Below, piece after piece: positions 13,553 to 55,068 of a stretch of 64,000 bases of DNA (position 1 is the first letter of the stretch; each line of letters begins with the position of its first letter). The DNA is taken from contig JAQUPS010000006.1 of NCBI GenBank assembly GCA_028716485.1, positions 651 through 64,650 of the forward strand, in the 5' to 3' direction. The stretch is from Patescibacteria group bacterium (GTDB lineage: Bacteria > Patescibacteriota > Patescibacteriia > Patescibacteriales > WJLG01). The notes below the pieces were generated by a model that saw nothing but the letters and a program-made list of their open reading frames with translations, was not told the DNA's origin and searched no databases. The position numbers were made by a program, and so were the translations under genes.

Positions 13553-13583
13553 AGATAAAAATATAAAATTCAAATTTTAAAAT

Positions 13584-14885
13584 TTAAAATTTTGATTTTA
13601 AAATTTCGACCGCCTTGTCCATTTGCGGGTCCGCTCCGGCATTGATAGCCGCTTCGGTGGTAGTCGCGATAACATCAGGCACTATCCCCTGCTCATTTAT
13701 CGAGTAGCCGTTGGGAGTGAACCACTTGGCTACGGTAACTTTAAGCATTGAGCCGTCGCTTAAAGTCTGCAAGACCTGCACCGAACCTTTGCCGTAAGTT
13801 TTTTCGCCGACGATTTTGGCCAGATTGTAATCCTTGAGCGCCCCGGCCAAAATTTCCGAAGCCGAAGCCGATCCGCCGTTGACCAAGACAACCGTGGGAA
13901 AATTATTCAAATGCTGGATGCCCGAGGAATCATATTCGTTATTTTCGGACGGATCGGTTGATTTTTCGCTAACCACCGGCTTGCCGCTCTTAACCCATTC
14001 CGAGGCCAAACTTACCGCCGAATCCAAAAAGCCGCCGGGATTATTGCGCAAATCGATGATCAAGCCCTTGGGATTATCCTTGACCGCTTGTTGCGCCGCG
14101 CTCTTGAATAGGTCGGCGGTATCTTCATTAAAATTGGAAATGGTGATGACGAAAATTTTATCCGGCCGCAAGACGGTTTGTACGCTCTTGACATAAATCA
14201 CATCACGGATGATAGAGATGTCTTTTGTTTCCTTGAAGCCTTGGCGGAAAATCGTCAAAACAACTTTTGTTCCTTTGGGGCCGCGGATTTTTTCCACCGC
14301 GGCATCGATGGTCATGTTTACCGTCGAAGAACCGTTAATGGCGAGAACTTTGTCGCCAGCCTTGATACCGGCTTTTTCGGCCGGCATTCCGGCCAGCGGC
14401 GCGATAATAGTGATCACATCGTCGCGCAAGCCGACTTCGGCGCCAATGCCCTCGAAAGTTCCGGACAAATCATTGCTGAAAGTCTGCGAATCTTTAGGGT
14501 CGAAAAATACCGTATAGGGGTCGCCCAATGATGCCGCCAAACCGGAAAGGGAACCGTAAAACATTTTCTTTTCATTGATTTTATCTTTGTCCACGTATTT
14601 CGCTTTCAAAGCGTCCCAAACTTCCCAATACAAATTAAAGTCAATATCCTGTGACAAGCGGCCGCCGGTGTCTTGAGTGTACTTGCCCGTGACTTTACCC
14701 AGATAAACCGATTCTTTATTGGCAAGCGCGGCGACTAATTTATTCTTGCCGGTGATATACATTCCCGCGCCGAATGAAACGAGCATTAAAACCAAAACTA
14801 AAAATAACAGGATCGCTTTGCGCACCAAATGATGTTTTTTTGACAACTCCCCTTCCCCGGGTTTTTTAAAAATGAAATTAAACAT
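13584..14885 (-). CDS. ctpA: S41 family C-terminal processing peptidase
   Basis: N-terminal TM, a PDZ segment (GMPAEKAGIKAGDKVLAING), GGSASASEILAGAL and TYGKGSVQ motifs. Confidence 0.9.
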   Translation of the reverse strand: MFNFIFKKPGEGELSKKHHLVRKAILLFLVLVLMLVSFGAGMYITGKNKLVAALANKESVYLGKVTGKYTQDTGGRLSQDIDFNLYWEVWDALKAKYVDKDKINEKKMFYGSLSGLAASLGDPYTVFFDPKDSQTFSNDLSGTFEGIGAEVGLRDDVITIIAPLAGMPAEKAGIKAGDKVLAINGSSTVNMTIDAAVEKIRGPKGTKVVLTIFRQGFKETKDISIIRDVIYVKSVQTVLRPDKIFVITISNFNEDTADLFKSAAQQAVKDNPKGLIIDLRNNPGGFLDSAVSLASEWVKSGKPVVSEKSTDPSENNEYDSSGIQHLNNFPTVVLVNGGSASASEILAGALKDYNLAKIVGEKTYGKGSVQVLQTLSDGSMLKVTVAKWFTPNGYSINEQGIVPDVIATTTEAAINAGADPQMDKAVEILKSKF

Positions 14886-23318: not shown

Positions 23319-23353
23319 ACTTTTAACTTTTTACTTTTAACTTTTTACTTTTT
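23319..23353. repeat. five tandem 7-nt units (actttta / acttttt)
   Basis: Read directly. Ends 4 nt before the -35 of the secE promoter. The same unit type occurs at 39113-39147. Confidence 0.7.
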
Positions 23354-23673: not shown

Positions 23674-23742
23674 CTCGTATTTCATGTCTCGTATTTGAAA
23701 AATATAAATACGAAATACCAAATACGAGATACGAAATACGAA
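23674..23742. repeat. 7-nt periodic inverted repeat (cgtattt / aaatacg units)
   Basis: Left arm 23674-23697 pairs with 23719-23742 (19 of 24 positions). Ends 5 nt before the nusG ATG. Confidence 0.75.
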
Positions 23743-24880: not shown

Positions 24881-24979
24881 TTGTGGGAGACTATTTAATG
24901 CTAAATGCTAAATGCTAAATTATATACAATGATTTAGCATTTAGCATTCATCGTTTAGCATTTTGTCGATTTACCACAA
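24881..24979. repeat. 7-nt periodic inverted repeat (aatgcta / atttagc units) closed by ttgtgg/ccacaa
   Basis: Left arm 24897-24920 and right arm 24932-24962. Same unit as 28086-28131. Confidence 0.75.
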
Positions 24980-28085: not shown

Positions 28086-28131
28086 AATGCTAAATGCTAA
28101 ATTTTTTATTTAGCATTTAGCATTTAGCATT
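28086..28131. repeat. 7-nt periodic inverted repeat (aatgcta / atttagc)
   Basis: Left arm 28086-28102 and right arm 28108-28131. Ends 2 nt before the thyA ATG. Confidence 0.75.
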
Positions 28132-36483: not shown

Positions 36484-37404
36484 TTAATTGCTTAAAAATT
36501 CTTTGACTTTATTTTCCGCGTCGGCTTTTTCATCAAGCCAATATATTTTACGTTTTTTTTCCCAGCGCTTGAACCAGGTCAGCTGTTTCTTGGTGAATTG
36601 GCTGATGGCGCGCTCGAGCAATCCGGCCATCTGGTCATAATCGATTTTTTCCTGCAGATATTGAGCGATAAATTTATATTCCAAGCCGAAAGATTCCAGT
36701 CTTTCCCAGGACAAGCCAGTCTTATCATGCAGGTCGCTGACTTCCTGGATCATATTTTCTTTTTCCAAACGATCAATCAGCCGGCGATGGATGCGTTCGG
36801 CCAGGATTTCTTTGGGGTAAGTAAGACCGAGGAGAATAAAATCGTAAGACGCTGGGCGCTGGGCGCTGGGCGCAAGAATTCGGGAAGTATCCTGAATCGC
36901 TATTTCTAAATATCTTATCAGTCGCCGCTTATTATTCTTATCGCTATTGTTTAATTTTTCCGCAAAGGCCGGATTTTTTGATTTAAGTTCGGCGAACAAT
37001 TCTTCGGCGCTCTTGTTTTCATTTTTCGCGCGCGCGGCCCTATCCGGCTTAATGTCAGTCAGCTGATAATTTTCCACCACGGCTTCAAGATATTGGCCGG
37101 AACCGCCGACGATTATCGGCAGCTTGCCCCTTTGTAAAATATCGTCGATGGCGGCAAAGGCTTGTTTCTGATATTCGGCCACGCTGAAAATTTGCTTCGG
37201 GTCGGCGATGTCGATGAGATGATATTTTATTTCTCCGTATTCCTGCAAATCTTTTCCCGAGCCGACATCCAGGCCGCAATAAACTTGCCGTGAGTCGGCG
37301 GAAATTATTTCGCCGTTAAATTGGCGCGCCAAAGCAACGCCGAGAGCTGTTTTTCCGCTGGCAGTTGTGCCTAAAATTACAATTACTTTATTATCGTTTT
37401 TCAT
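36484..37404 (-). CDS. miaA: tRNA dimethylallyltransferase
   Basis: VIVILGTTASGKTALGVALA P-loop and SADSRQVY. The track ORF is extended to 37530 through the repeat element; an alternative start is at 37431. Confidence 0.9.
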   Translation of the reverse strand: MKNDNKVIVILGTTASGKTALGVALARQFNGEIISADSRQVYCGLDVGSGKDLQEYGEIKYHLIDIADPKQIFSVAEYQKQAFAAIDDILQRGKLPIIVGGSGQYLEAVVENYQLTDIKPDRAARAKNENKSAEELFAELKSKNPAFAEKLNNSDKNNKRRLIRYLEIAIQDTSRILAPSAQRPASYDFILLGLTYPKEILAERIHRRLIDRLEKENMIQEVSDLHDKTGLSWERLESFGLEYKFIAQYLQEKIDYDQMAGLLERAISQFTKKQLTWFKRWEKKRKIYWLDEKADAENKVKEFLSN

Positions 37405-39112: not shown

Positions 39113-39147
39113 GCTTTTAACTTTTCACTTTTAACTTTTAACTTCGT
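39113..39147. repeat. five tandem 7-nt units (gctttta acttttc actttta actttta acttcgt) abutting the gyrB ATG
   Basis: Read directly. Same unit type as 23319-23353. Confidence 0.7.
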
Positions 39148-46864: not shown

Positions 46865-48058
46865 TTATTTATATTCTTGTAGTTTTACTTTGACCGAATT
46901 TTCCGCGCCGGCGCGGCGGTAGATAATATTAATTTCATCGCCGGCCGCGTAATTTTCCAAGATGTTCCGCAAATCACGGGTGGCATCGATATTTACATTG
47001 TCCACGGAAATAATGATATCACCGGCTTGCAAACCGGCCGCGGCGGCGGCGCCGCCTAATTTTACCGCCGGTATTTTAGTGTTGGAATAGATCAAGGCGC
47101 CTTTATCGAATCCAACATCTTTAATCGCGTATTCCTGCAAATTAACATAACTGATCCCAAGCGAAGCGCGCTTGCTTTCTTTACCTTGCAGCAATCCCTT
47201 GACCAGGGGCTGGAAATCATAAATCTGGACCGGCCCGTTTTTTTTATCAAAATAGCCGACTACCTGGCTGTCCAGGCTGAAAATAAAAACCTCGTTGAAA
47301 TAATCGCCCAGGTTGTTGGCGAAAATAATGTTCGGCGAGCTGACGTCGCTGTCTTTGACCGATTGATCCGCCGCGACCTTGTCAACGATCGAAGTCAGAT
47401 AGCTTTCTCCCTGCCAATTCAAAGCCACCAGCGACTGGCTATTGGCCAGATCCATCTTGGAAACAAAACTTTTAACCGGCAAATCCCTGGCATTGGCCAG
47501 ATGAACAAAAACAAAAGAATTAATTCCGGTCGGGCTGATCTTGTCGATATTATAAATGTTCTTGGTTTTAGTGATGACGACAAAACTTTTTAACGCCGTA
47601 TTTTCCGGAATATTCTTGGTAAAATCCGAGGTGAGCACCCAGCCGTCGCTGGTCACGACGATCCCCTCGCTAACCGCGTCATTCAACCGATAATAATCGG
47701 CGATGGCAAAGGGCTTTCCCGCTGCCGCGACTGAACTGGTCGCCGCCGCTGGATTTTTTTTAAAGACGCCGACCAGGCTGTTTTGGCTCGCGCTGATGGT
47801 GTCATTGATTTTGTTTTCCTGGCCGGCAATAATTTTTTTGGCGCTTTCAATGACCGAATTGGCCTGGCGCAAACTATCCTGCGAAGTATCGATTTGCCCG
47901 CCAGCCGGCTGCTGGCTGATATTGAGGGACAAATAAGGCCGGGCGACAATTATCGCGGCCGCTCCCCCGCCGATTCCCAATAAAAGAGCCAAAGCAAAAA
48001 TCACAAAAATATTTAAATGATACCCGCGCTTTTCGATTAATGAATTCTTTTCTCTCAT
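46865..48058 (-). CDS. membrane-anchored HtrA-like protein with PDZ domain but no recognisable catalytic triad
   Basis: TM anchor. IVVTSDGWVLTSDF sits where HtrA has ...ILTNNHV, and there is no GNSGG. C-terminal PDZ (GLQAGDIIISVDNVNI). Confidence 0.65.
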   Translation of the reverse strand: MREKNSLIEKRGYHLNIFVIFALALLLGIGGGAAAIIVARPYLSLNISQQPAGGQIDTSQDSLRQANSVIESAKKIIAGQENKINDTISASQNSLVGVFKKNPAAATSSVAAAGKPFAIADYYRLNDAVSEGIVVTSDGWVLTSDFTKNIPENTALKSFVVITKTKNIYNIDKISPTGINSFVFVHLANARDLPVKSFVSKMDLANSQSLVALNWQGESYLTSIVDKVAADQSVKDSDVSSPNIIFANNLGDYFNEVFIFSLDSQVVGYFDKKNGPVQIYDFQPLVKGLLQGKESKRASLGISYVNLQEYAIKDVGFDKGALIYSNTKIPAVKLGGAAAAAGLQAGDIIISVDNVNIDATRDLRNILENYAAGDEINIIYRRAGAENSVKVKLQEYK

Positions 48059-48077: not shown

Positions 48078-48815
48078 CTAAGCCCATCTGGCGCTTAAGA
48101 ATATCAAAAGCAAAAAAATAAATCCGGATGCCAAGTATAATTTAACGCTGCGGCCAGTTAATTTTTCCGCCAGCGATAATTTAACGAAACTGATTAGCAA
48201 ATAATAGCAGATGACGGCGATCAATCCCAAGGCATTGTAATTAAAAGGCAGAAAATAAACGGCCCAGGCAAGCTCGACGAGCAGAAGTCCGGCCAGAAAG
48301 GCATAGGCGAGCATATTTTCGGCCTGGATTTTATTGGCCCACAGAATTTGATAAATTATCAGAATCATTGCCGCGCCCGAGCATAAAATCAAGAGCCAGA
48401 TCGGCAAACCAAGAAAAGATTCCAAGCCGTAAATAACCGAAAAGCAGAAAAAGACGGTCAGCAGGTTGCCATAAGCGGAAATATTTTCCAAAAAATCCCG
48501 CTGGGCGCCGCGATAAATATTTTTTAAATAAAAGTAGGTGAAAAAAAGATTCAGAACGAACAAAAGATGGATCAAGGTATGATTGACGGCCAATAACGAA
48601 TAAGCGGCCAAGGAGCTGGAAAAGAGAATGGGGAAAATCGAAAAATTCCAAAAATCTCTGCTGATAATTTTTTTTCCGGTTATTATCCGCACCGCCAGCA
48701 AGAGCAATAAATCGGAAATGAGTATCACGGCGTAAAATAAATTAGCCTTGAAGAAAAACACTTCAAAGAGGATGAAATTCAACAACGGAGTAATGATAAT
48801 TACAAAGTAAACCAT
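48078..48815 (-). CDS. multi-pass membrane protein, hypothetical
   Basis: 245 aa with ~8 TM helices. Confidence 0.55.
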   Translation of the reverse strand: MVYFVIIITPLLNFILFEVFFFKANLFYAVILISDLLLLLAVRIITGKKIISRDFWNFSIFPILFSSSLAAYSLLAVNHTLIHLLFVLNLFFTYFYLKNIYRGAQRDFLENISAYGNLLTVFFCFSVIYGLESFLGLPIWLLILCSGAAMILIIYQILWANKIQAENMLAYAFLAGLLLVELAWAVYFLPFNYNALGLIAVICYYLLISFVKLSLAEKLTGRSVKLYLASGFIFLLLIFLSARWA

Positions 48816-48842: not shown

Positions 48843-49095
48843 TTAATTAATCGACCAATTGTATTTCAATTTAATCACAGCTTGATTGATTTTATTCGGT
48901 TGACATTCAAATCCATTGAATATCACGCCTATTTTGTTACTACATCAAGCCTGATTTTTGTGTTTCAAACATTGCGCCATCGCTATATCCCGCATGGCTT
49001 TTTCCGCATCAATTCTTCAGCCGTATTTTTCCTGAAAATTTTTAATATCAGTCAAATTACTGATTATGTATTTATTAATGTCAATTAAGGTGATC
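48843..49095 (-). pseudogene. degraded 4th copy of the C-terminal cassette
   Basis: Minus-strand reading gives MITLIDINKYIISNLTDIKNFQEKYG*RIDAEKAMRDIAMAQCLKHKNQA*CSNKIGVIFNGFECQPNKINQAVIKLKYNWSIN*. It has two in-frame stops and is truncated after KLKYN. Confidence 0.7.
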
Positions 49096-49108
49096 ATTTA
49101 TAATCTTT

Positions 49109-49225
49109 TAAAATCCTGAAAAATTATGAATAATATCCTTATAGTGAAAAAAGGCAAAATTGAAATTAAAATCATCACTAAAAACGAAAACAAAATAATT
49201 GTTATTTTTTTTCTTTAAACTTTCC
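49109..49225 (-). CDS. 38-aa remnant of a small ORF (MESLKKK...)
   Basis: My own translation. The N-terminus resembles MENLKKK of 50231-50551. Below the ORF-track size threshold. Confidence 0.3.
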
Positions 49226-49232
49226 ATAAATT

Positions 49233-49550
49233 TTAAAATTTACTGATTAAATATTTTATATCCTCTTTTATTATATTATACCCCGCCTGATTAATCCATT
49301 TAGTGAGCAAAAACACATTCAATTTGGTTAAAATCAGATTGTATTTTAATTTAATTAACGCTTGATTAATTTTGCTAAACTGATATTCGAACCTGTCAAA
49401 TGTTTTTCCAATTTTTGCATCGCACCAGGCTTGATTTTTATGCTTCAAACATTGCGCCATGGCTTTGTCCCGCATTACTTTTTCTTTATCGATTCTCTGG
49501 CCGTATTTTTCCTGGAAATTTTTAATAACTGAGGACTGCGCCGGAACCAA
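49233..49550 (-). CDS. orphan C-terminal cassette 3
   Basis: From IKNFQEKYGQRIDK onward it is collinear with the last ~95 aa of the 1503-aa protein. The 5' homology is shorter than in cassette 2. Confidence 0.55.
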   Translation of the reverse strand: MVPAQSSVIKNFQEKYGQRIDKEKVMRDKAMAQCLKHKNQAWCDAKIGKTFDRFEYQFSKINQALIKLKYNLILTKLNVFLLTKWINQAGYNIIKEDIKYLISKF

Positions 49551-49583
49551 AATAGCTGAATTAAAACAAATAACCCGGCTTTT

Positions 49584-49832
49584 TTAGCCCAAAGGAATTA
49601 AATTGGTGTTACCATTATATAAATTTATTATAGCGAAAACTAATAAAATAAAATAAAATAAAATAAAATAAAATAAATGGCGTTTTTTATCGCCTAACTT
49701 AATCAGCAAAAATGGAAATATGAAAATAAAATAAACAATGTAGATAAAAATATCAAACAAATGAAAGACAAATAACAAAAGAAAAGGAATTAAAAATAAC
49801 AAGAAAATTATAACTTCTTTGTACTTTTTCAT
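49584..49832 (-). CDS. small very hydrophobic F/L/I-rich membrane protein (cassette partner 2)
   Basis: 82-aa ORF 4 nt downstream of cassette 2. Contains the (TTTAT)7 tract. Confidence 0.5.
   Translation of the reverse strand: MKKYKEVIIFLLFLIPFLLLFVFHLFDIFIYIVYFIFIFPFLLIKLGDKKRHLFYFILFYFILLVFAIINLYNGNTNLIPLG
49643..49677. repeat. pentanucleotide microsatellite (ATAAA)x7 inside a CDS
   Basis: Seven perfect units counted. Encodes FYFILFYFILL on the minus strand. Confidence 0.9.
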
Positions 49833-49836
49833 AAAT

Positions 49837-50184
49837 TTAGTTTAATTTATTAATTAAATATTTTACATCCTCTCTAATCATATTATATCCTGCTTGATTA
49901 ATCCATTTTACCCGCAAATATACATCCAATTTGGTTAAAATTAAATTATATTTTAATTTAATCAAGGCTTGATTAAATCTGCTAAGCTGATATTCAATTC
50001 TGTTGAATATCTTTCCGATTTTTGCATCGCACCAGGCTTGATTTTTATGCTTCAGGCATTGAGCCATTGCCTTGTCCCGCATCGTCTTTTCTTTATCGAT
50101 TCTTTGACCATATTTTTCCTGAAAATTTTTAATGTCGGTCAAATCGTTGATTAAACCATTCTTTGCTTCAACTTTTGTGATCAT
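49837..50184 (-). CDS. orphan C-terminal cassette 2
   Basis: 115-aa ORF. DNA homology to the main gene extends upstream of its ATG to ~50222. Confidence 0.6.
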   Translation of the reverse strand: MITKVEAKNGLINDLTDIKNFQEKYGQRIDKEKTMRDKAMAQCLKHKNQAWCDAKIGKIFNRIEYQLSRFNQALIKLKYNLILTKLDVYLRVKWINQAGYNMIREDVKYLINKLN

Positions 50185-50230
50185 TTTCTCGTCATAGGCG
50201 CGATTGACATCGGTAATTGTGCCAATATTT

Positions 50231-50551
50231 TTACAATATCGTCATGTGACCAAAAGCATTTATTAGACCCATGTAGGTATATATATATATAGCAATATAC
50301 GGAATAATTAAAAATAAAATGATAAAAATTATTTTACTGATTATTTTTTTTAAACCAGACAATCTAAACGGAATAAAAAATAAAAATGGGTGAGTAAATA
50401 GTAAATAAAACCCCAGGTATCCGGAAAAATCAAAATTATCACTACGGCCATTTTTACCTAAAAATAGAGCTATAAAAAAAATAACAAAGAAAGACACCCA
50501 ATAAAGCAATGCTGGCGCGAACATTTTAATTTTTTTCTTTAAATTTTCCAT
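50231..50551 (-). CDS. small hydrophobic membrane protein (cassette partner 1)
   Basis: 106-aa ORF 5 nt downstream of the giant gene, with 3 TM helices. Contains a (TA)7 tract at 50278-50291. Confidence 0.55.
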   Translation of the reverse strand: MENLKKKIKMFAPALLYWVSFFVIFFIALFLGKNGRSDNFDFSGYLGFYLLFTHPFLFFIPFRLSGLKKIISKIIFIILFLIIPYIAIYIYTYMGLINAFGHMTIL

Positions 50552-50556
50552 AAGTA

Positions 50557-53500
50557 TTATAACTTACTAATTAAATATTTCATATCACCCCTTATTATAT
50601 TATATCCACTCTGATTTATCCATTTAGTGCGCAAAAACACATCCAATTTGGTTAAAATCAGATTATATTTTAATTTAATCAGGGCCTGATTGATTTTATT
50701 AAGCTGATATTCAAATCTATCAAATATCGTATCTATTTTCTTAGTACACCAGACTTGATTTTTATATTTCAAGCATTGAGCCATGGCCTTATCCCGCATG
50801 ACTTTCCCTTTATCAATTCTTTGACCGTATTTTTCCTGAAAATTTTTAATGTCAGTCAAATCGTTGATTAAACCATTCTTTGCTTCAACTTTTGTGATCA
50901 TTTTCTCGTCATAGGCGCGATTGACATCGGCAATCGTACCATTAATATCAGTGATTACGGAAAAATTAATGATTTGTTCGGCTTGATTTCCGGCTAAATC
51001 TTGAATAGCGATTTTAACCTGATGCGAGCCGAGATTTTGTTTAAATAAATCAATGGTGTTTGAGTTGATAGTCTGGCCATTAAAATAAATTTTGGCGGTG
51101 GCAGTATTAATGCCGGAAAAATTATCAGCTGCGAAATACTCAACGTCCAGCGCGTTATTGCGCAAAACTTCCTGGCCTTCCTGCGGCAACAAAACGCTGA
51201 TAATTGGTTTGATTTGATCTACTTCTATAGTCGCTGTTTGATTCGCTTCTTGATTTCCCGCCTTATCGATGGAACGGTAAATAATATTATGTTCGCCGTC
51301 TCCTGACAAAATTATCTTATCTACATAATCCTGCCAGACCTGGCCGTCATCCAAACTGTATTCAGTTTTCAGAACTCCGGAATTGTCATCGGTGGCGGAT
51401 AATTTTATCTGGACATCGGAAACATAATAGCCGTTATTGCCAGCTTGACCGGAAATGTTTATAGTCGTTTGCGGAGCGGTCAGATCGTTTATTTGTTCAC
51501 CGGTGAGCACCGAATCCGGGGCTATAGTTTTATCAATCGTACCATCACCATTAGAATCAACTTTGGCCAAATACTGCGTTTGGTTATCGGAAATATCATA
51601 TTCAACATTGGCAGCGGCAGAATCAAGCTTGACCGAATCAAAATAAGCGAATTGGATTGGCTGGCTATTTTCTATTTTTTGAATCGTAATACCTAACTCG
51701 CCGCTGGAAGTGGCTTGGTTGACGACGCGGTAAGAGTGGCCGGCTGGCAAAAACGCATATTTATCATTACCTAAAATATCATAAGTTACGCCGGGAATAT
51801 TTTCTTCAATATCACCGTCGACGGTCGGACCGGTGTGATTGCCATTTTCATCATAGATATTTAATTCTACCGGGCTGTGAGAACCGACTTGGGTTCCGTT
51901 AATACTTTTACAAATTCTCTGCTGGTCTTGGCTTTGACCTAAATTTGAATATTGCGAAAAATTAAAATTATTTTCATTACCGCTCAAAATTGACGTGACA
52001 AGTTGGCGAACGCCGTTTGCGCTTGGAATATAGCCATGGGTTGTGGCATTGGTATAATATTGATGGCTACCGAATGGAATGGCGCTTTTTAGAGGCACCG
52101 TGCCATCGCCGTCAACCGGAGGCAATGCCCAATTTCCATTGCCTTTTTTCTCTACCCCGGCATAGGTGGCTTGACCGCAACCGATGATATTATAGTAATT
52201 GTCAGAATTGGGTAGATTGTCTATCCTGCTATGCAATTCATCGTTGACATTGACTGCGTTTATTCCAACATAACCGAGTAAAAAATTATTTCTTCCTTGA
52301 TCGTTTAAAAATGACATTGACTGATCATAATTGAGCGGACTTAAAATGCCAACGTTCTGATTGCCACCGGCGATATCGTAGATGTAGCTACTGGTTATGG
52401 GAAGGCCGGGAATGTCTGATTCAAAATATTTACGGCTGGGAAGAAGTTGATAAATGGAGGGCATGTTTTGGGAAATAGACTTAACTTCATCTGGATTTAA
52501 TCTAAATATCCCAGAAAAATTTATATCCAAATCATCTCCATAATTCAATATTTTAAAAGCGCTTGGCGAACCTAAATGCGGCGTAGCAATATCAATAAAT
52601 TTATCAATGTTATCATTGCCATTTTTATCAATGTAGTCCTTGACCAATAATCCACCCATACTGTGGGCAATAATATCCACTTTTTCTGCGCCGGTTTGAT
52701 TTTTTATATCAATTATTTTTTGTTTTAAAGTTGCTTGCCAAATGGACTGACTGTCACCAGTAGTCGAATCAAGATTCATCCGCCAATCATAGGGAAAAAC
52801 AAATAAATCTTTATTCTCTTCGTAACCATTATTTTCTAATTCTTCTATCAACCCCCTAAAAAAATCTCTATCAATTAAAACTTTTCCTATAATTTCAAGA
52901 TGCACATCTCTAAAAATATCTGCCGAATTTGCTATCGGATTATTCTCGTCTTGATTCCCGTATTGATCCAATTTTAACGCGTTCAAATAACTATCCGACC
53001 CCGGCAATGCCATTAGCGCAAAATTCGGCCAAAGCTCGTCGCCAGAAAGATAATCCTTTAAATAACTCCCCAAAATCCCCGGCACGATGATTACCGGATT
53101 GCGCGCGAGCGAAAAATCCGTAGCAACGGCAGGGTTGCTCATTGTTTGCCAGGCCGAGGCATTGCTTTGCGAATCCACCGCTCTTGCCTGCCAGTGATAT
53201 TGGTCATTTGATAAATTCAATAAAGCTACCGAAGCAATCTGACCGGAAGCGACAAAACTACTGGTCGCGGTGGGCACGCCGGTAAATGCGGTTCCTGATG
53301 GTTGGACTTCAACCTGCAACTGCGTCTGGTTGTTCGCGGGGTTAGTTAGCGTGCCCCGAAACACCACAATGTTTTCTGTGATGCTTACGCCCACGGAAAT
53401 CGGAGTTGTGCCGTCAAACCTAAACTGACCGAGATTAGAAAGTTGGGGAATTGGAATTGTCCCGTTATTTGTTATCGTGATTTGCTCCGAACCGCTAACC

Positions 53501-55068
53501 CCGTAACTATCATTCGCCGTTGCCGTTACGGTCACCGTTCCCGGATTTTTCGCATTAAGCAAGCCAGTTTGATTAATTGTTGCCGAGCCCGTTCCGTTTA
53601 TTACTGTCCATATTATATTTTGATTGCTTGCGCTTGATGGAAATACGGTTGCATTCATTTGCAAGGTATCGCCGCTGACAACGCCATTGATTTGATTCAG
53701 CTTAACTATAAAGCCTTGCCAAGTATAATAATCTGGGTAGGTCACATACGGCGTATCATTATCAACGAATAAAGGGAGGATGGAGGTGTCTGTGCCAAGC
53801 GACCAACCAGAAACATAGGGACTGCCTACGCTTACCCAGTTAGTGCCATCATATTTCATTACAACCGGACGAATATTATATTCACCGCTGATATACGCCG
53901 CGTACGGCGTACCATTCTCAACGAACAACGCTATAGGCCATGTTGCTCCGCCCTGACGAGGAAAATCCGGGTTTCCTACGTTTACCCAACCTGTCCCGTT
54001 GTACTCTATTACATTAATCTTGTAATTGTTTGCCATATTCTCATATGCTAAATACGGAACGCCATCGGATACGGAAAAGGACAGATAATGGCTAAATTGA
54101 TCAACGCTTACATCCGGATTTCCTACGTTTACCCAAATAGTTCCATCGTACTTCTCTACGTTAATATTTCCTCCGTTTGAATATGCTACATACGGAATAC
54201 CGTTGGATACGGATAAAGAAATATATTTTTCTTTATCTGAAAAATTCGGATTTCCTACGTTTTCCCAATTGATTCCATTATACTTCATTACCGTAACACT
54301 GTAATTATTATAGCTATCCAAGAATGCTACATATGGGATGCCATCGGATATTGATAAGGAAGCAACTCTCGCGCCTCCTTGTTGAGAAAAATTAAAATTG
54401 CCTAAATATACCCAATTTGTTCCGTCATACTTCATTACGCCATCAATACAAGCAACAAAAGGAGTGCCATTGTATACGGATAAATAGGAAAAGGAAGGAT
54501 TAAAACCTTTACAAAAATCCGGACCTCCTACGTTTTCCCAATTAATTCCATTATACTTTTTTACAATTATAGAATTGTTCCCCTCCATATATGTTACGTA
54601 TGGGATGTTATTATCAACGAACACTTCGTATGCTTGAGAAAAATCAGGGGTTCCTACGGGTGAAAATGATGCGCCTGCGCCCTCCACAGTTATTTTAACA
54701 ACTGGTATTAAAGACATGGTAATCCCCCTGTCAATCACAGATGAAGCGGTTACAATTATGCCATTGTTTGCCCCCAGGATAATCACATTGTCCCCAATCA
54801 ATATATCAGCAATGGCCGCGCCTTCACTGTTTTTCGTAAAGATAGTCGCGCCCGTGGTATTAATTGTGTAAGCCGTATTACTGTCACTTATCATCGTAAA
54901 ACTATTTCCGTTTAGCGCGCTCACGCTACCAGCTACGGCGGTATCAGCAAATGTAATTTTTGCAAACATAAAAAAACCGCCCACAACAATAGCGGCGGCC
55001 AACACAAAAATAAATTTGCTTGACAGCCATTGACTTCTGAATTTTATCGTGGCATGCATTTTATTCAA
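50557..55068 (-). CDS. giant secreted/surface protein: signal anchor, propeller-like repeats, Ig-like (Big_2-type) domain, LCAT/PGAP1-like alpha/beta-hydrolase (lipase) domain, Ig-like domains, variable helical C-terminal module
   Basis: 1503 aa.
- N-terminal TM (aa 17-40).
- ~7 repeats of the type NG(I/T)PYVAY...KY(N/D)G(I/T)NW.NVG (aa ~140-450).
- Big_2-like region (aa ~460-535).
- Lipase domain aa ~656-1030 (nt 51979-53103) with PGILGS, AHSMGG, DGDGTVP and THGY.
- C-terminal module from aa ~1377 (nt 50940). Confidence 0.85.
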   Translation of the reverse strand: MNKMHATIKFRSQWLSSKFIFVLAAAIVVGGFFMFAKITFADTAVAGSVSALNGNSFTMISDSNTAYTINTTGATIFTKNSEGAAIADILIGDNVIILGANNGIIVTASSVIDRGITMSLIPVVKITVEGAGASFSPVGTPDFSQAYEVFVDNNIPYVTYMEGNNSIIVKKYNGINWENVGGPDFCKGFNPSFSYLSVYNGTPFVACIDGVMKYDGTNWVYLGNFNFSQQGGARVASLSISDGIPYVAFLDSYNNYSVTVMKYNGINWENVGNPNFSDKEKYISLSVSNGIPYVAYSNGGNINVEKYDGTIWVNVGNPDVSVDQFSHYLSFSVSDGVPYLAYENMANNYKINVIEYNGTGWVNVGNPDFPRQGGATWPIALFVENGTPYAAYISGEYNIRPVVMKYDGTNWVSVGSPYVSGWSLGTDTSILPLFVDNDTPYVTYPDYYTWQGFIVKLNQINGVVSGDTLQMNATVFPSSASNQNIIWTVINGTGSATINQTGLLNAKNPGTVTVTATANDSYGVSGSEQITITNNGTIPIPQLSNLGQFRFDGTTPISVGVSITENIVVFRGTLTNPANNQTQLQVEVQPSGTAFTGVPTATSSFVASGQIASVALLNLSNDQYHWQARAVDSQSNASAWQTMSNPAVATDFSLARNPVIIVPGILGSYLKDYLSGDELWPNFALMALPGSDSYLNALKLDQYGNQDENNPIANSADIFRDVHLEIIGKVLIDRDFFRGLIEELENNGYEENKDLFVFPYDWRMNLDSTTGDSQSIWQATLKQKIIDIKNQTGAEKVDIIAHSMGGLLVKDYIDKNGNDNIDKFIDIATPHLGSPSAFKILNYGDDLDINFSGIFRLNPDEVKSISQNMPSIYQLLPSRKYFESDIPGLPITSSYIYDIAGGNQNVGILSPLNYDQSMSFLNDQGRNNFLLGYVGINAVNVNDELHSRIDNLPNSDNYYNIIGCGQATYAGVEKKGNGNWALPPVDGDGTVPLKSAIPFGSHQYYTNATTHGYIPSANGVRQLVTSILSGNENNFNFSQYSNLGQSQDQQRICKSINGTQVGSHSPVELNIYDENGNHTGPTVDGDIEENIPGVTYDILGNDKYAFLPAGHSYRVVNQATSSGELGITIQKIENSQPIQFAYFDSVKLDSAAANVEYDISDNQTQYLAKVDSNGDGTIDKTIAPDSVLTGEQINDLTAPQTTINISGQAGNNGYYVSDVQIKLSATDDNSGVLKTEYSLDDGQVWQDYVDKIILSGDGEHNIIYRSIDKAGNQEANQTATIEVDQIKPIISVLLPQEGQEVLRNNALDVEYFAADNFSGINTATAKIYFNGQTINSNTIDLFKQNLGSHQVKIAIQDLAGNQAEQIINFSVITDINGTIADVNRAYDEKMITKVEAKNGLINDLTDIKNFQEKYGQRIDKGKVMRDKAMAQCLKYKNQVWCTKKIDTIFDRFEYQLNKINQALIKLKYNLILTKLDVFLRTKWINQSGYNIIRGDMKYLISKL

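Follow-up and report, generated by a model that had tools for sequence, protein, structure and literature searches.

A perfect pentanucleotide tract in a small membrane protein gene of a Patescibacteria lipase locus, a candidate unstable coding microsatellite

Organization of the lipase locus and its cassette array

The DNA analyzed is a stretch of 64 kb, here referred to as the window, from a Patescibacteria MAG with the locus tags PHO56_. A gene for a large predicted surface protein and a series of smaller genes and gene remnants extend from position 55068 down to approximately 48858, on the minus strand throughout:

50557..55068, minus strand: gene for a 1503-aa predicted surface protein, a lipase (Pfam, NCBIfam)
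50231..50551, minus strand: p106, gene for a small membrane protein of 106 aa (ORF, orthologues)
49837..50184, minus strand: cas115, intact orphan copy of the lipase C-terminal domain (MDD5527823.1, PHO56_02485; alignment)
49584..49832, minus strand: p82, gene for a small membrane protein of 82 aa (ORF, orthologues, AF2)
49233..49550, minus strand: cas105, second orphan copy, N-terminally truncated and with a TTG start (homology starts at IKNFQEKYG)
49100..49227, minus strand: remnant of a p106-like partner gene (MESLKKK...) after cas105 (translation, simulation)
48858..49097, minus strand: third orphan copy, a pseudogene with in-frame stops (tblastn, 67% over 80 aa)

The 1503-aa protein consists of an N-terminal hydrophobic segment, a Big_2 domain, a lipase domain of the LCAT/PGAP1 type, and an OmpL47-type barrel. 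Its last ~115 aa form a domain, here called the cassette, that recurs three times downstream. Each copy of the cassette domain is followed within 3–6 nt on its 3′ side by a small hydrophobic ORF or the remnant of one: p106 follows the full-length lipase gene (starting 5 nt past its stop codon), p82 follows cas115 (starting 4 nt past its stop codon), and the partner remnant follows cas105. The reading frame of the remnant is lost at a run of A8 (49205-49212), and a run of A7 would give a hydrophobic ORF of 42 aa. As A8/T8 runs are frequent in the window (n = 32), the idea that this one is a special site of slippage was rejected, and the frameshifted remnant is probably a case of plain decay. 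A scan for promoters and terminators returned counts at shuffled expectation and was uninformative. Just downstream of the array, a 245-aa polytopic membrane protein with a DUF5656 domain (Pfam E = 6.5e-07) is encoded on the minus strand (48078-48815).

The copies of the array are separated by dS values of ~0.8–1.4 with a dN/dS of ~0.1 (0.07 for cas105 vs. the other copies), and cas115 shares 89% identity with the C-terminus of P0014, the second lipase of the MAG, compared with 79% for its own upstream lipase. Based on these sequence distances, the orphan modules look like old or foreign displaced 3′ ends and not like recent tandem duplicates. Among all copies compared, the cassette domain displays 63–92% identity over its last 97 residues; identity to cas115 in the alignment is 62–83% and falls to 38% in the divergent family of the loci L010, L013, and L014. 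A profile search of 1.84 billion representatives recovered the domain in 54 clusters, in all of which it is located at the extreme C-terminus of a protein of 800–1470 aa or stands alone (41–210 aa). An LCAT lipase domain was identified in eight out of nine long members tested, behind varied N-terminal domains. The layout of a cassette followed by a small ORF is shared by the related loci L003-L006, L008, and L013 and by a JGI contig of 13,665 bp, and the MAG itself contains a second locus (MDD5527498.1-MDD5527500.1). In other related loci the partner position is occupied by unrelated-looking small hydrophobic ORFs of 96–109 aa, and overall diversity is much higher among the small partner ORFs than in the cassette domain upstream.

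The AF2 model of the cassette domain is a three-helix bundle (pLDDT 80). In a fold search, this model was matched only by generic helical bundles (best E = 0.35) and by no PDB entry significantly, so the function of the cassette is not inferable from its fold. No Pfam or NCBIfam family was found for the cassette domain, p82, or p106, and the CdvA, YibL, polymerase, and EptA lines that these searches returned for the three are far below the cut-offs.

Two small membrane protein genes follow the cassette domains

The AF2 model of p82 contains two helices (residues 2-46 and 49-78, pLDDT 70), and in the sequence the last helix is preceded by a charged loop (KLGDKKRH) and followed by a conserved tail (NLxNGxTNxIPxG). 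Full-length, ungapped orthologues are present at L004:3382-3630 (65% aa identity) and L011:139-387 (71%). The orthologues of L004 and L011/L012 (82 aa, other metagenomes) are likewise located directly after a cassette domain, and the p82 family has a dN/dS of 0.10–0.18. Orthologues of p106 at 68% aa identity were identified at L001:358-672, in L009, and as protein P0015, with P0016 as a further family member; those in L001/L002 and L009 also directly follow a cassette domain, and the dN/dS is 0.24. Neither p82 nor p106 of the window occurs in the protein collection, indicating that the depositor's annotation apparently missed both. The positional orthologues and the dN/dS values of 0.10–0.24 nevertheless argue that both ORFs are genuine genes that are kept by selection and encode small membrane proteins. 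A FD..Y..Y....PFL motif is visibly shared between the two; a profile–profile comparison gave a probability of 4.5%, which does not establish homology.

Perfect repeat tracts within p82 and p106

Each of the two genes contains one perfect repeat tract:

49643-49677: (ATAAA)7 pentanucleotide tract in the minus-strand gene p82, (TTTAT)7 in the coding sense (TRF, regex, simulation)
50278-50291: (TA)7 tract in the minus-strand gene p106, codons 87-92 (regex scan, ORF offset)

A preliminary description of this DNA had reported seven perfect ATAAA units in the 82-aa ORF and seven TA units in the 106-aa ORF, and both tracts were recovered. The former was identified by TRF (period 5, 7.2 copies, 100% matches at 49642-49677) and by a regex scan, in which the same run also appears as (AATAA)7 at 49642-49676, and the latter by the regex scan. 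They are the two longest perfect microsatellites of the 64-kb window. With a unit of 2–6 nt and a length of at least 10 nt, the window contains just two further perfect tracts, (GCG)4 at 47040 and (CG)5 at 37027, and the earlier remark that no comparable perfect tracts had been noticed in housekeeping genes therefore holds. The p82 tract covers nucleotides 156-190 of the ORF (codons 52-64, peptide H-LFYFILFYFIL-L) and would encode the first two-thirds of the last helix, given the position of that helix (49-78) in the AF2 model. The p106 tract covers nucleotides 261-274 of the ORF (codons 87-92), encoding (A)IYIY(T) within the local peptide AIYIYTYM. The unit lengths are 5 and 2, neither of them a multiple of 3, and both tracts are perfect and intragenic.

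The array region has a GC content of 25–27% compared with ~44% for the 64-kb window. To assess chance occurrence of the tracts, the AT-rich region 49100-50551 (27% GC) was simulated 5000 times under a second-order Markov model. A longest tract of at least 14 nt was obtained with P = 0.036, one of at least 20 nt with P = 0.0002, and one of 35 nt in 0 out of 5000 runs. The pentanucleotide tract is far beyond chance, and the (TA)7 tract is near chance for the local composition and marginally unusual. When the peptide and the local codon usage are taken as given, a perfect (TTTAT)7 encoding has a probability of P = 0.006, suggesting that a process acting on the DNA has been superimposed on the periodicity of the peptide. 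Published cut-offs for phase variation, which are calibrated on Neisseria and not on the present organism, are at least five units for pentanucleotides and, for dinucleotides, eight units in the methods and six in a table footnote (PMC5953494). On this Neisseria-calibrated scale, the seven units in p82 exceed the cut-off of 5, and (TA)7 is below 8 and above 6. By the usual bioinformatic criteria, p82 would be classified from its sequence as a candidate phase-variable gene.

Transcriptional slippage and a non-coding role of the + strand were also considered for the pentanucleotide tract and set aside, the tract being not homopolymeric and contained in a conserved ORF.

Repeats of a different type occur elsewhere in the window. 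Two intergenic hairpins (24897-24963 and 28086-28131, 3.2 kb apart) are each formed by (AATGCTA)n, a short loop, and the reverse-complement array (ATTTAGC)n. Each occupies the gap that separates two successive + strand ORFs, and the pair has the appearance of a recurring palindromic element resembling a terminator. Further tandem arrays with a period of 7 nt (3.4–7 copies, some perfect) are present at 13558-13606, 23319-23353, 23706-23742, 36850-36873, and 39114-39144.

Simulated changes in unit number

In the simulations, adding or removing a single unit puts p82 out of frame, in agreement with the earlier expectation, and has the same effect in p106. With 4, 7, or 10 units p82 is full-length, and its last helix differs by five residues per step. 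With 5 or 8 units a stop codon is reached at the end of the tract (...FY*), and with 6 or 9 units the sequence ...FISFRYNKFI* is added. The off-frame products of p82 are affected in their C-terminal 20–30 residues, the conserved tail included. The p106 gene is in frame with 4, 7, or 10 TA units, and other counts alter its last ~15 residues. Both tracts are located within the last third of their ORFs, and the loss caused by a frameshift is therefore limited to the C-terminal 10–30 residues.

One of the alternative frames of p106 extends up to the next gene. With (TA)6 or (TA)9, 31 more codons are read after IYIY (…LHGSNKCFWSHDDIVKILAQLPMSIAPMTRK*, window 50181-50291) and the frame is closed by a TGA overlapping the start codon of cas115 (ATGA). 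The stop codon of the present p106 frame is located 46 nt upstream of this overlap. Speculatively, TA slippage could switch translational coupling from p106 to the orphan cassette cas115.

Tract length among the relatives of p82

Homologues of p82 fall into copies with a pure tract and copies with an interrupted one:

P0009 (MDD5527498.1, PHO56_00790), 77 aa: same MAG, on another contig of 108.7 kb, adjoining the orphan cassette P0002 and the 1398-aa lipase P0014
P0011, 59 aa: another sample, closest homologue outside the MAG; pure-tract peptide, ends ...RLFYFILFY*
L004 and L011/L012: other metagenomes; interrupted tract (e.g., TTG CTC TAC TCC ATT CTA TTT TAC TCC GTT TTA), same 12-residue length
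L010/L013/L014: three samples; interrupted tract, same length, with a TAG point mutation three codons later

Comparing the tract between related genomes had been proposed earlier as a check on slippage, and its length does differ: the same MAG carries the seven units of p82 and, as seen at the protein level, a copy with four. All 77 residues of P0009 are identical to p82 (77/77), from which it differs by the absence of FYFIL, equal to exactly three units, and residue for residue it is the simulated four-unit product. The cassette P0002 beside P0009 is only 81–83% identical to cas115, and the two loci of the MAG are therefore distinct. P0009 is also the only length variant that was verified over the whole protein, and it is in-frame. 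The second pure-tract homologue, P0011, ends at the exact stop of the simulated five-unit (or two- or eight-unit) product, judging from its protein end; a TCG-to-TAG nonsense change at that codon would be an alternative cause.

The pure-tract copies thus appear to contain seven, four, and probably five units, and every homologue with an interrupted tract keeps the ancestral length. Such a pattern of lengths is the signature expected from purity-dependent slippage, and these sequences suggest at least one whole-unit change in the pentanucleotide tract, and probably two. The orthologues for which DNA is available have interrupted tracts of constant length, indicating that mutability is not conserved in the p82 family.

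A different type of truncation is present in the p82-like gene of a lineage that is more distant, in contigs of three separate samples (L010:2152-2403, L013:3029-3280, and L014:2957-3205), which share the same in-frame TAG at codon 68. Tract slippage was rejected as the cause, as the TAG is in frame three codons after the tract and the downstream frame is intact, with the conserved tail still in frame behind it. This gene would represent either a stable truncation or a pseudogene for which the repeat is not the cause.

The TA tract of p106

The IYIY peptide is invariant in three members of the p106 family, and the orthologue in L001 contains (AT)6 at the same place with the frame unchanged. 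The (TA)7 tract is thus explained by the ATA and TAT codons of a conserved peptide and is considered to be largely incidental. A possible length variant is P0016 (100 aa, sample 3300075153), which ends in IYIY-FSGLNQCFW*. Its tail matches the –2-nt frame of the window (LHGSNKCFW) at five out of nine residues, including C and W, with a BLOSUM62 score of 36 compared with 13 in frame. Judging from this protein end, the loss of a single TA unit, giving (TA)6, would produce the P0016 tail. Both putative frameshift variants, P0011 and P0016, derive from one metagenome (JGI 3300075153).

Origin and possible role of the pentanucleotide tract

The explanation that we favor, with moderate confidence, is that the pentanucleotide tract is an unstable coding microsatellite that originated as a by-product and would yield real variants in helix length as well as truncations. 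Hydrophobic helix segments rich in F, Y, I, and L would be encoded almost exclusively by A/T codons, from which repeat tracts could arise: TTT-TAT-TTT-ATT-TTA is (TTTAT)3 and ATA-TAT-ATA-TAT is (TA)6. An ancestral periodic segment of 12 residues (L[FL]Y[FS][IV] LFY[FSV][IV]LL) would have become a pure 35-nt repeat in this lineage, and the unit number of the pure tract would then change by slipped-strand mispairing, the presumed mechanism. The seven-unit and four-unit copies within the same MAG and the probably five-unit, out-of-frame copy of a relative would be the products of such changes. A change by three units would make the last membrane helix five residues longer or shorter, and other changes would replace or remove half of the last helix together with the NLxNGxTNxIPxG tail. 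Mini-tracts of (TTTAT)3 or (TATTT)3 are found in the hydrophobic partner ORFs of L010/L013/L014 and L008, and their occurrence elsewhere in AT-rich hydrophobic ORFs suggests a compositional by-product.

The preliminary description had interpreted both tracts as substrates of slipped-strand phase variation. This interpretation is retained in part for the pentanucleotide tract, which exceeds the cut-off of at least five units and exists in seven-unit and four-unit copies at the protein level, with the reservation that the verified variant is in-frame; it is largely not retained for the (TA)7 tract, which is near chance and encodes the invariant IYIY, with the P0016 tail predicted for (TA)6 as a point in its favor. 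The pentanucleotide tract is regarded as a credible, if unproven, on/off site of the contingency type that most likely has a by-product origin.

A stronger version of the same idea is that the locus is a dedicated phase-variation switch, in which selection keeps the tracts and the partners alternate reversibly between full-length and C-terminally altered forms, with p106 maybe also controlling the coupling to the cassette. We regard this as doubtful. Seven pentanucleotide units against a cut-off of at least 5 (PMC5953494), three close pure-tract copies that appear to hold seven, four, and probably five units, and a DNA purity above the prediction from codon usage (P = 0.006) are all consistent with a switch, as is the (TA)6/(TA)9 frame of p106 with its TGA overlapping the cas115 ATG, and a surface protein with alternative C-terminal modules is the usual kind of locus for phase variation. 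However, the tracts are located in the 3′ third of their ORFs, away from the 5′ end, the pure tract is lineage-specific and not kept in orthologues, and the one verified variant preserves the frame. The (TA)7 tract is accounted for by the conserved IYIY at a length near chance, similar AT-rich hydrophobic ORFs carry mini-tracts, and the array is partly decaying.

A further explanation is that the tracts reflect static low-complexity coding or the decay of redundant orphan modules by AT drift, relaxed selection, and rare one-off indels, with mutability not meaningfully raised. The array does form a gradient from the intact cas115 via the truncated cas105 to the stop-ridden third copy and the frameshifted partner remnant, its GC content is as low as 25%, a p82-like gene carries a TAG stop in three samples, and p82 and p106 are apparently uncalled in the depositor's annotation. 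Decay appears unlikely all the same. The partner of p106 is an intact full-length lipase gene and not an orphan, the p82 ORF is complete with its conserved C-terminal motif in a family with a dN/dS of 0.1–0.2, and the copies in the MAG differ exactly in the repeat, by whole units, with the other 77 residues identical. Whole-unit changes between identical flanks fit a repeat-specific instability and not random decay.

There is little likelihood that the two genes are true phase-variable, small polymorphic membrane partners of a surface lipase in a CPR episymbiont lineage, a scenario in which AT-only repeats would toggle or resize the p82 helix and the p106 stop codon would gate an otherwise silent cassette. 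If it were true, it would represent the first SSR contingency system described in CPR bacteria and would connect slippage in repeats with how a cassette array is used. Finally, an assembly or sequencing artefact, i.e., mis-assembly of near-identical modules in the MAG or repeat indel errors in the other metagenome, is very improbable. The two MAG loci are indeed near-identical in sequence, several related contigs are broken at the cassette (with L001 and L009 beginning within it), and one sample is the source of both putative frameshift variants. However, a tract of 35 nt is much shorter than a read, the differences amount to complete repeat units and not to single-base errors, and the distinct loci are separated by the 81–83% identity between P0002 and cas115.

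If the pentanucleotide tract really switches, SSR contingency behaviour would be extended to ultra-small, uncultivated Patescibacteria. The switch would then act at a probable cell-surface locus that combines an LCAT-type lipase, a small membrane partner, and displaced C-terminal modules. A confirmed SSR contingency locus would be plausible here rather than very surprising. If the tract is stable, it would be an ordinary consequence of the AT-rich coding of membrane helices. The unit number per read in existing metagenomes would provide a cheap marker of within-population heterogeneity.

Comparison with known systems

Rhs and CdiA polymorphic toxin loci contain arrays of orphan C-terminal modules and a small partner gene downstream of a large secreted protein. 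The lipase locus resembles them in layout: a large secreted protein is followed within a few bases by a small gene, copies of the 3′ end without a promoter and with small genes are located downstream and decay progressively, and an orphan module is closer to the main gene of the other locus (89% vs. 79%). In the window, a small ORF or its remnant follows each of the three orphan copies, which lie downstream of the main gene. Unlike in the toxin loci, where the C-terminal toxin domain is hypervariable and has a recognisable fold or family, the C-terminal domain of the lipase is conserved and the small partners are the diverse component; the cassette domain is a three-helix bundle without a match to a toxin fold and without a Pfam or NCBIfam family.

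PhasomeIt has been used to catalogue SSR contingency loci in Campylobacter and Neisseria (PMC6321876, PMC5953494). In common with these, p82 contains a perfect repeat inside its coding sequence, the unit length is not divisible by 3, and the unit number exceeds the cut-off of 5. The gene also has homologues whose tracts are interrupted or below the threshold, as in loci described as "sporadic" phase-variable (PMC5953494). The p82 gene differs from the catalogued loci in belonging to an uncultivated Patescibacteria MAG that is known from assembled sequence. In a full-text literature search, phase variation in Patescibacteria was not the subject of any study; both terms occurred together, once each, only in one paper on archaeal DNA methylation.

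The closest analogue of the p82 tract is the CTCTT coding repeat of the Neisseria opa genes. The opa repeat is located in the signal-peptide region at the 5′ end of the gene, and its switching has been measured experimentally (PMC13183285). Because of this 5′ position, off-frame opa alleles make no mature protein. In p82 the tract starts at codon 52 out of 82, outside a 5′ signal-peptide region, and occupies codons 52-64, so only the last helix and the tail would be affected. The p82 protein is also unrelated to Opa, and its tract is AT-only and known here from sequence alone. The likeness lies in the organization of the repeat itself: in opa (PMC13183285; PMC5953494) as in p82 the unit is a coding pentanucleotide whose number sets the frame, the repeat encodes a hydrophobic peptide segment, and the genome contains several related copies, of which one carries the tract at a locus with a surface-associated function.
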